Shown piece by piece: positions 23,887 through 26,794 of a DNA stretch of 40,478 bases; within the stretch, counting starts at the first letter, position 1; each line of letters starts with the position of its first letter. The position numbers and the translations under genes are program-made. Under the pieces are notes generated by a model. The model was not told where the DNA came from and did no database searches. It was given only the letters and a program-made list of their open reading frames with translations. The DNA is taken from sequence record PQ476010.1, one strand, 5' to 3'. This DNA comes from Escherichia phage PhiNW-B1.

Positions 23887-24768
23887 ATGTCTCAATCAGT
23901 TTATGCCGAGTTCGGCGTTAGCTCTAATGCAATCACTGGTTCCGTTGAGGACCTGAACGAACACCAGAAGTCTATGCTTGAACAGGACGTAGCTGTTCGT
24001 GATGGCGATGACGCTATTACCTTCAAGCAACTGGAAGCCGAAAACGAAGAGGCGACCGAAGAAGACGAGAACGTCGAAGAGGCTGAAGGTGAAGACCACG
24101 AGTCCGATGACGAAGAGTCTGAGACAGATGGTGAGCAGCCTGAGTTCATTGAACTGGGTGATGCACCTAAAGAGCTGACCGAAAGTGTCACCGCTCTGGA
24201 TGAAAACGAAGCTGCATTTGACGACATGGTGTCTTCTGCTGTAGAAGCCGGCAAGGTCACTGCTGATGAAATTACCGCTATCAAGGCTGAATACGCCAAG
24301 GACGGTAAGCTGTCTGACGCATCCTACGCTAAGTTGCAGGAAGCAGGTTACACCAAGCGCTTCGTAGATTCGTTTGTCCGTGGTCAGGAAGCTCTGGCTG
24401 AACAGTATGCTGCTGGTGTGGTTCGCTACGCTGGTGGTGCTGAACAGTTTAATCGCATCCTGTCACACCTTGAGTCAAACGACCCATCAACTCGTGAAGC
24501 ACTGGAAGCTGCTATCGTTCGCAAGGACATTGCTACTACCAAAGCTCTGCTGAATCTGGCTGGCAAGACTCTGGGTAAAGCTGTGGGTGTTAAACCACAG
24601 CGTACCATCACCACTCAGGCTAAACCTGTGGTAGCACCTAAGGCTCCTCAGACAGAAGCATTCAGCTCAAAGTCTGACATGATTAAGGCTATGAGTGACC
24701 CGCGATACCTGCGTGACGCTAAATACACGATGGAAGTTCGCGCTAAGGTAGCTGCCTCAAGCCTGTAG
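23887..24768 (+). CDS. 9: capsid assembly scaffolding protein (T7 gp9 homolog)
   Basis: VYA.FGV.S....GSVE, acidic middle, GYTK.F.DS..RGQEAL.EQY, MIKAMSDPRY; start at ATG 23887 with AAGGAG upstream (track start 23812 lacks RBS). Confidence 0.9.
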   Translation: MSQSVYAEFGVSSNAITGSVEDLNEHQKSMLEQDVAVRDGDDAITFKQLEAENEEATEEDENVEEAEGEDHESDDEESETDGEQPEFIELGDAPKELTESVTALDENEAAFDDMVSSAVEAGKVTADEITAIKAEYAKDGKLSDASYAKLQEAGYTKRFVDSFVRGQEALAEQYAAGVVRYAGGAEQFNRILSHLESNDPSTREALEAAIVRKDIATTKALLNLAGKTLGKAVGVKPQRTITTQAKPVVAPKAPQTEAFSSKSDMIKAMSDPRYLRDAKYTMEVRAKVAASSL

Positions 24769-24769
24769 G

Positions 24770-24792
24770 ACTAAACTATCACTATAGGGATA
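24770..24792 (+). promoter_or_regulatory. phage RNAP promoter (phi10-like), +1 G at 24787
   Basis: ACTAAACTATCACTATAGGGATA; about 100 nt upstream of capsid gene. Confidence 0.8.
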
Positions 24793-24894
24793 CCAAGAGA
24801 TAGACTCAAGGTTTCCCTATTACTTCAGTCCATACGGATTGGGCATACAGTAAGTAATAAACTTTATCTTTCAATTGAATAGGAGAATTATCAT

Positions 24895-25938
24895 ATGGCA
24901 AACGTTCCGGGTCAGAAAATTGGTACAGACCAAGGTAAAGGCAAATCCAGTTCCGACGCTCTGGCGTTGTTCCTGAAGGTATTTGCTGGTGAAGTCCTGA
25001 CCGCATTCACTCGCCGCTCTGTAACTGCTGACAAGCATATTGTCCGTACCATTCAGAACGGTAAGTCTGCTCAGTTCCCTGTCATGGGTCGCACCTCTGG
25101 TGTGTATCTGGCTCCTGGTGAGCGACTGTCCGATAAGCGTAAAGGTATCAAACATACCGAGAAAGTGATTACCATTGATGGTCTGCTGACTGCCGATGTG
25201 ATGATTTTCGACATTGAAGACGCGATGAACCACTATGACGTGGCTGGCGAGTACTCCAACCAGTTGGGTGAGGCTCTGGCTATCGCTGCCGATGGTGCGG
25301 TTCTGGCTGAAATGGCTCTCCTGTGTAACCTCCCGGCTGCATCCAACGAGAACATTGCCGGTCTGGGCACTGCGTCAGTACTTGAAGTTGGTACTAAAGC
25401 CGCCCTGAACACTCCGGCTAAGCTGGGTGAAGCAATCATCGGTCAACTGACCATTGCTCGTGCGAAGCTGACCTCCAACTACGTTCCTGCTGGCGACCGT
25501 TACTTCTACACCACGCCGGACAACTACTCTGCAATCCTCGCGGCTCTGATGCCGAACGCTGCTAACTATGCTGCGCTGATTGATCCAGAGACTGGTAACA
25601 TCCGTAACGTGATGGGCTTCGTTGTTGTTGAAGTCCCGCATCTGGTACAGGGTGGCGCTGGTGAGACTCGTGGTGACGATGGCATCTCTATCGCTTCCGG
25701 TCAGAAACACGCATTCCCGGCAACTGCTACTGGCGACGTTAAAGTTGCTATGGACAACGTTGTGGGTCTGTTCTCTCACCGTTCTGCTGTGGGTACTGTG
25801 AAGCTGCGTGACTTGGCGCTGGAACGCGACCGTGACGTCGATGCTCAGGGTGACCTGATTGTGGGTAAATACGCTATGGGTCACGGTGGTCTGCGTCCTG
25901 AAGCGGCTGGCGCACTGGTTTTCAGCCCAGCGGCGTAA
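24895..25938 (+). CDS. 10A: major capsid protein 10A
   Basis: 347 aa (T7 10A is 345); position after scaffold; strong RBS; followed by Tphi-like terminator. Confidence 0.97.
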   Translation: MANVPGQKIGTDQGKGKSSSDALALFLKVFAGEVLTAFTRRSVTADKHIVRTIQNGKSAQFPVMGRTSGVYLAPGERLSDKRKGIKHTEKVITIDGLLTADVMIFDIEDAMNHYDVAGEYSNQLGEALAIAADGAVLAEMALLCNLPAASNENIAGLGTASVLEVGTKAALNTPAKLGEAIIGQLTIARAKLTSNYVPAGDRYFYTTPDNYSAILAALMPNAANYAALIDPETGNIRNVMGFVVVEVPHLVQGGAGETRGDDGISIASGQKHAFPATATGDVKVAMDNVVGLFSHRSAVGTVKLRDLALERDRDVDAQGDLIVGKYAMGHGGLRPEAAGALVFSPAA

Positions 25939-26069
25939 GCACATTTAGCCAACCTAACGTCGCTACAGTAGCGGCTGCACCTGAAGAGGGGACTCTAACT
26001 CCTCAGCAGAAAGCTGCGCGTACTCGTGCTGCGAACAGGGCCGCTAAACTGGCTGAGTCCAACAACTAA
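24895..26069 (+). CDS. 10B: minor capsid protein 10B by programmed -1 ribosomal frameshift near 25917-25923
   Basis: GGTTTTC at 25917-25923 about 15 nt before the 10A stop; the -1 frame is open for 50 more codons to TAA 26067-26069, just before the terminator; T7 makes 10B this way. Confidence 0.6.
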
Positions 26070-26072
26070 TTG

Positions 26073-26112
26073 AAACCCCTTGGGTGCCTTCGGGTGCTTG
26101 AGGGGTTTTTTG
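26073..26112 (+). terminator. Tphi-like late terminator
   Basis: long hairpin AACCCCTTGGGTGCC-TTCG-GGTGCTTGAGGGGTT with UUCG tetraloop (26089-26092) then TTTTTTG; resembles T7 Tphi by recall. Confidence 0.8.
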
Positions 26113-26126
26113 CTTAAGGAGGGACT

Positions 26127-26216
26127 ATGGTCCTTATTTACACAGGGTTAGCACTATTCGTCTTATTCTGGGCGTACCTGCTGTCCAGCTCACCGTCTAG
26201 CGCCTATGACCGTTAA
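26127..26216 (+). CDS. 29-codon hydrophobic mini-ORF between terminator and gene 11, existence uncertain
   Basis: AAGGAGG 4 nt upstream of ATG; MVLIYTGLALFVLFWAYLLSSSPSSAYDR. Confidence 0.25.
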   Translation: MVLIYTGLALFVLFWAYLLSSSPSSAYDR

Positions 26217-26227
26217 GGAGTAAACCT

Positions 26228-26794
26228 ATGGCTCAATACATTCCACTGAATGCTAACGATGACTTAGATGCCATCAACGATATGTTAGCTGCTATCGGTG
26301 AACCAGCAGTCCTACAGCTTGACGAAGGCAATGCTGACGTCTCGAATGCTCAACGTATCCTGCATCGTGTCAATCGTCAGGTCCAAGCTAAAGGATGGAA
26401 CTTTAACATTAATGAAGCTGCTGTCCTGACACCTGATGTCCAAGACAATAGGATTCGATTCTTGCCGTCATACCTTCGTATAATGACCGCTGGGGCCACC
26501 AGCTACTACAGCAACATGGGTGGATACCTGTACGACCTATCCACTCAGTCAACCACTTTCACCGACCCTATCACAGTAGAGCTTGTGGAGATGAAGCCAT
26601 TCTCCGAGATGCCTGTGGTCTTCAGGGACTACATCGTCACTAAAGCTAGCCGTGAGTTCAACGCTAAGTTCTTCGGTAGCCTAGAGTCTGAACTGTACCT
26701 TCGTGAGCAGGAAGCAGAACTCTATCAGCAGGTCATGGAATACGAGATGGATACTGGTCGCTACAACATGATGTCCGACATTGGGAGGGACTAA
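26228..26794 (+). CDS. 11: tail tubular protein A (T7 gp11 homolog)
   Basis: 188 aa; position and size; RBS TAAGGAG. Confidence 0.9.
   Translation: MAQYIPLNANDDLDAINDMLAAIGEPAVLQLDEGNADVSNAQRILHRVNRQVQAKGWNFNINEAAVLTPDVQDNRIRFLPSYLRIMTAGATSYYSNMGGYLYDLSTQSTTFTDPITVELVEMKPFSEMPVVFRDYIVTKASREFNAKFFGSLESELYLREQEAELYQQVMEYEMDTGRYNMMSDIGRD

Follow-up and report, generated by a model that had tools for sequence, protein, structure and literature searches.

Does the DNA behind the major capsid gene of Escherichia phage PhiNW-B1 encode the C-terminal part of a second, longer capsid protein, produced by a programmed -1 ribosomal frameshift of the kind known from phage T7? The question arises in the window, by which is meant the whole 40,478-nucleotide stretch of record PQ476010.1 that was analysed, and in which a sequence-only reading had proposed a T7-like 10A/10B pair with its shift and extension at 25917-26069. 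From its database matches, the window is a K1F-like relative of T7 (genus Kayfunavirus, Studiervirinae) and a new isolate within a well-sampled group: the region 24800-26230 is nearest to Escherichia phage vB_EcoA_ASO2B (97.5%), the right-hand 20 kb have phage 216Ecol046PP as top match (95.8%), and no record is identical to the whole genome.

The capsid gene, the candidate shift site and the limits within which a shift could occur are placed as follows.

24895..25938, + strand: gene 10A, major capsid protein, zero frame, 347 aa, 36.2 kDa (36.19), stop TAA 25936-25938
25917..25923, + strand: slippery heptamer G_GTT_TTC (Val-Phe), the putative -1 shift site, from its sequence, register and identity with T7
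25902..25935, + strand: the only stretch (34 nt) allowing a -1 shift from 10A into the extension, from three-frame translation

The 10A protein matches the Gp10A-like family of Pfam (PF21703, E 8.7e-105), is near-identical to PDB chain 9vvq_I, and reaches an E value of 4.7e-147 with T7 10A (2xvr). GGTTTTC occurs in one + strand copy, in frame within the last codons of the capsid gene, and among the 35 + strand reading frames scanned (at least 100 codons from stop to stop) the sole in-frame G_GTT_TTC is this one, at 25917-25923. It is of the relaxed G_GU type and not the canonical X_XXY_YYZ. A productive shift is confined to 25902-25935 because the -1 frame is closed upstream by TGA 25899-25901; the 10A stop is the downstream border, and between the two GGTTTTC is the only good slip site. 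The heptamer had been placed 15 nt before the 10A stop. It is indeed present there, but the spacing from its end is 12 nt, or four zero-frame codons (SPAA, against three, KVE, in T7), and 15 nt is correct only when the count begins at the TTC codon's first base.

T7 carries the identical heptamer, G_GUU_UUC, in the same register and at the same Val-Phe of the C-terminal motif ...GHGGLRPEAAGA(L/V)VF (T7 record position 23986). Its GGTTTTC yields 10B in about 10% of translations (PMC1635266), and the site is classed as a G_GU heptamer at which tandem tRNA re-pairing takes place, a ribosomal event (PMC5009743, Atkins et al. 2016 review). The parallel drawn beforehand with T7 10A/10B holds for the heptamer, its register and its place in the motif; in length the two extensions differ, with 48 aa after the Phe in the window and 57 in T7, or a net gain of 44 versus 53 aa. 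A GGGGG run lies 3' of the T7 site and has no counterpart in the window. C-terminally extended minor capsid proteins arise likewise, by a -1 shift at the 3' end of the capsid gene, in phages of the T3 / phiYeO3-12 type and in those with Big_2-bearing extensions (PMC5009743, PMC2579914). In the T3 / phiYeO3-12 type, however, the shift occurs at lysine codons and adds an Ig-like domain, whereas in the window it would occur at Phe and adds a non-Ig tail; T3 is known to gain its Ig-like domain by frameshifting, and the T7 extension is not Ig-like (PMC5009743). These features place the window with the T7 (non-Ig) type. The 10B of Kluyvera phage Kvp1, with the site TTTTCA, was confirmed by mass spectrometry (PMC2579914); its poly-U/Phe shift site resembles that of the window, but the phage is of a different genus.

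The segment that would be specific to 10B is the following.

25923..26069, + strand: -1 frame coding segment, 48 aa after Phe343 (QPSGVSTFSQPNVATVAAAPEEGTLTPQQKAARTRAANRAAKLAESNN) and stop TAA

Read from 25917, the -1 frame (GFQPSGVSTFSQPNVATVAAAPEEGTLTPQQKAARTRAANRAAKLAESNN) is open for 50 sense codons up to TAA 26067-26069, exactly as the sequence-only reading had stated, and the translated peptide is the one that it gave. The predicted 10B, join(24895..25923, 25923..26069), has 391 aa and 40.8 kDa (40.76). A capsid species larger than 10A by about 5 kDa had been anticipated; a longer product is predicted, with a computed gain of 4.6 kDa and 44 residues. Independent initiation within the extension was considered and is ruled out, the -1 frame of 25917-26069 containing no ATG, GTG or TTG. 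With Pfam, the 391-aa product matches Gp10A-like only, and no Pfam or Ig-like match was obtained in the window's extension. Searched alone against PHROG, the tail matches the 'head protein' families 12582 (E 2.7e-9) and 20538. In BLASTP, the junction and tail together are 63% identical to T7 10B (E 7e-17). The T7 tail, GFQSGVMLGVASTVAASPEEASVTSTEETLTPAQEAARTRAANKARKEAELAAATAEQ, and that of the window, both non-Ig, have the block (E)TLTPxQxAARTRAAN in common, and a basic, alanine-rich stretch at the tail end (LTPQQKAARTRAAN) is conserved with T7; conservation between the two is poor in the N-terminal half of the tail.

With the extension as tblastn query, 80 phage records match, 78 of them over at least 80% of its length. 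All 80 are below 99% identity, and 63 fall at 95-99%, that is, at one or two differences. Position 25990 is G in the window and A in every relative directly examined, a change of GAG to GGG that replaces Glu by Gly (PEEETL to PEEGTL) and creates GAGGGG, which exactly matches the 3' arm of the terminator described below; it is probably neutral.

Phage K1F, of the same genus, has the same heptamer, and its shift-extension segment of 153 nt departs from that of the window at 4 positions. A -1 frameshift with 'addition of 44 triplets' was described for it (PMC6277420), the same extension length as in the window, and a stable fluorescent phage resulted when GFP was fused to its g10b at the 3' end (PMC6277420). 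A joined 10B coding sequence is annotated in the GenBank records of CR44b and Penshu1, and the EcoDS1 record notes a 'region of similarity to gp10B' that 'may be translated via slippery sequence'. The feature has precedents in both the genus and the family and is nothing new in kind.

Is the extension of the window itself used as protein? The length of the open frame was dropped as evidence, given that a -1 frame open this long has a chance of about 0.11 from base composition or 0.16 from shuffles, so that some 11-16% of random sequences of such composition would be equally open; run-on lengths behind the window's other genes are confounded, since genes downstream overlap. An open frame that is statistically usual would suit an alternative in which the -1 ORF is an untranslated relic of a T7-like ancestor, 10B is not produced in any meaningful amount in this lineage, and the stretch is no more than 3' untranslated RNA ahead of the terminator. 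The significance of the frame derives instead from homology and from the substitution pattern. The coding test used a 21-codon conserved block, in which the window was compared with three T7-type lineages, namely T7 and the IMG/VR sequences L014 and L033. At -1 frame codon positions 1/2/3 the differences number 5/4/14 for T7, 2/3/11 for L014 and 3/4/12 for L033, a third-position excess (14/23, 11/16 and 12/19 differences) with a binomial p of 0.004-0.007 in each comparison. The ratio pN/pS is low in the -1 frame only, with values of 0.06-0.22, and exceeds 1.3 in each of the other two. Because of this third-position excess and the low pN/pS, the extension is seen to evolve as protein in the -1 frame, and the claim that the stretch past the 10A stop is coding there is borne out. 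The pattern is that of purifying selection specific to the -1 frame, a frame that in this arrangement is reachable only by a -1 shift, and its presence across lineages argues against an untranslated relic.

A second line of evidence was provided by relatives of gene 10 collected from IMG/VR and from annotated phage records, among which 57 distinct sequences have Val-Phe at the site. Where GGTTTTC or GGTTTTT stands in frame, a -1 extension 40 or more codons long follows in 31 of 32 sequences, versus 9 of 25 where the heptamer is missing; Fisher's test gives p 5e-7 for the association, with the sequences not being phylogenetically independent. Among the 25 without heptamer, the synonymous, non-slippery GGTCTTC is found in 15 and an extension is missing from 16, so that the commonest state is GGTCTTC with the extension absent. 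The nine that bear an extension without the heptamer comprise two with CGTTTTC, three with terminator read-through lacking any homology, and four of Ig-like type (the presence of Big_2 having been confirmed with Pfam only for sequences of such type). The last four have a lysine codon just before the stop, and probably shift at this T3-style lysine site. The joint occurrence of heptamer and extension, and the synonymous non-slippery variant where the extension is missing, again count against a relic.

The single heptamer-bearing exception, vB_EcoP_F (IMG/VR copy L013; KY295894 / ON548433), has a 1-nt deletion, TAAG to TAG, aligned to window positions 25936-25939. Its heptamer and whole extension are intact, with the extension in the +1 frame instead of the -1 frame. 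This may be either a natural 10B-null phage or a sequencing error in the AA run; unless the record is erroneous, 10B can apparently be lost. Such a disrupted frame would fit an untranslated relic, as would the virion proteomics of two relatives, in which 10B is unreported: for CR44b, 10A was flagged and 10B was not, and for SH3 the major capsid protein alone is listed, from a search set that did not include 10B. The 10B protein of T7 is also said to be dispensable, a result attributed to Condron et al. in 1991; for K1F the contrary was conjectured (PMC6277420). These points are opposed by the fluorescence of the K1F g10b::gfp phage, in addition to the selection and the association described above, and it is very unlikely that the extension of the window is such a relic.

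A different role for the stretch would be at the level of RNA, with 25939-26069 kept for mRNA 3' stability, for terminator context or as a processing site, and the open frame a by-product. The structures that bear on this are two.

26072..26111, + strand: Tphi-like intrinsic terminator, a 17-bp hairpin and T-run, from folding and terminator scan, with CCCC at 26076-26079
25929..25964, + strand: predicted 8-bp hairpin, a possible local stimulator 5 nt past the heptamer, from folding

The terminator hairpin (26072-26109) has a folding energy of -25.2 kcal/mol and a z of -4.5, is invariant in 10 relatives, and is annotated in the ASO2B, EcoDS1 and Penshu1 records. Its arms, AACCCCTTGGG...GAGGGGTTTTTT, are those of the T7 Tphi-type terminator and stand right after the 10B stop. 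The stem had been said to start four nt past that stop; it starts 2-6 nt past it, depending on whether outer G-U/A-U pairs are counted, in agreement with the close placement claimed. Folded as a whole, the 199-nt segment is more stable than its shuffles (z -3.3), largely owing to this terminator, and third-position diversity of the extension among Kayfunaviruses is lowish, 0.054 where 44-codon windows of 10A have a median of 0.110. Both observations would favor a role in RNA. The diversity is low relative to the last 300 nt of 10A (Fisher p 0.002) but not relative to the whole gene (p 0.07). Among sliding 10A windows it ranks only at the 7th percentile, and an additional RNA-level constraint on the extension was set aside as not significant. 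Moreover, between T7-type lineages the synonymous sites diverge freely while the peptide is kept, and no compensatory change was found among 60 predicted pairs in a 10-sequence alignment. An RNA role would in any case be compatible with coding and would not exclude it; that it accounts for the open frame as a by-product is extremely unlikely.

The remaining alternative, in which the phage RNA polymerase slips on the T4 run and loses one U, is suggested by the four T's at the site and would give the same protein, yet four identical bases are a short run for productive polymerase slippage, and this origin of the longer protein has a next to negligible chance of being correct. The homologous T7 event is moreover treated as ribosomal (PMC5009743). 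The GGTCTTC relatives do not separate the two mechanisms, because with GTC in place of GTT the T run has two bases instead of four and the re-pairing site is gone as well.

The reading that very probably applies to the window is a T7-type programmed -1 ribosomal frameshift that produces 10B as a minor capsid protein. It is supported by the T7-identical site, the homologous tail, selection on the -1 frame and the association of heptamer with extension. As proposed, most ribosomes would read G GUU UUC AGC CCA GCG GCG UAA and release the 347-aa 10A, while a minority would slip back one base, with tRNA-Val and tRNA-Phe on GUU UUC re-pairing to GGU UUU. The slipped ribosomes would resume at CAG in the -1 frame and translate a further 48 residues up to TAA 26067-26069, giving a 391-aa 10B that consists of the whole 10A fold (residues 1-343) and a 48-residue tail. 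Such a protein would co-assemble in low copy number as part of the capsid and expose its tail. That slippage actually takes place, and that 10B enters virions, is inferred here by analogy with relatives, from the approximately 10% efficiency in T7 and the GFP fusion in K1F.

The shift may be aided by a 3' stimulator. In T7, the CCCC of the Tphi terminator was reported as a long-range frameshift stimulator (PMC5009743), and by analogy the CCCC of the Tphi-like hairpin, 153 nt downstream of the shift site in the window, is a candidate. A GGGG partner for it near the shift site is present in T7 and absent in the window, where the candidate pairing was rejected; the sole GGGG within the extension, at 25988-25991, is a product of the window-specific substitution at 25990 and is not common to the relatives. 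It is rather unlikely, though conceivable, that the extension RNA and the CCCC of the invariant Tphi hairpin form a long-range stimulator that sets frameshift efficiency. If they did, this RNA role would be a second constraint behind the somewhat low synonymous diversity of the Kayfunavirus extension. A local stimulatory hairpin or pseudoknot was also considered, and no convincing case could be made for one: the energy of the 25929-25964 hairpin is no better than that of shuffles (z +0.29 for a 67-nt stretch), one of its pairs is broken in K1F, and compensatory change is lacking.

The main value of these findings is in correct annotation, in that the genome should carry 10B as the joined coding sequence given above. 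Many other related records annotate 10A alone and omit the true frameshift product. In others (PV714130, OM867676, the PRF-SP / STP-SP series, PDB 9vvq), the name 'minor capsid protein' or '10B' is given to the 347-aa zero-frame 10A, a mislabelling that probably stems from best-hit transfer off T3/T7 10B entries, and the true frameshift product is missing there too. The 10B tail is also a natural place for the display of peptides or reporters on K1F-like phages, as with GFP in K1F. To the biology of recoding nothing new is added; the feature is real but ordinary.

The kind of extension is itself variable. Behind an identical GGTTTTC, relatives whose 10A is 94-99% identical to that of the window have markedly different -1 extensions, and because near-identical 10A proteins bear differing extensions, the extension behaves as a swappable cassette. 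One module of about 88 aa, with no Pfam match (…DVTDWSLL…SYSRRTNSLYFKA…), is found in L016-L026, L009, L077, L078 and L073. More distant relatives (L038, L046, L051-L058, L068) have Big_2 Ig-like extensions, and in L049 and L063 the site is GGTTTTT, followed by Big_2 and more than 250 further residues with a GDSLT motif, the frame extending for at least 333 codons and running off the contig.

Two further features flank this region. Upstream of gene 10, at 24770-24830, a K1F-type phage promoter (ACTAAACTATCACTATAGGGATA) is followed directly by a GGGA…TCCC inverted repeat, which in the ASO2B record is annotated as a terminator overlapping the promoter. Downstream, between the terminator and gene 11, the + strand has a 29-aa ORF (MVLIYTGLALFVLFWAYLLSSSPSSAYDR, 26127-26216) with the Shine-Dalgarno sequence AAGGAGG at 26116-26122. 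It resembles a single transmembrane helix, and homologues, 45-100% identical, are present in just 6 of the loci examined; T7 has no gene at this place, and the annotation of phage Pipis lists the ORF as a hypothetical protein that has a TM domain.
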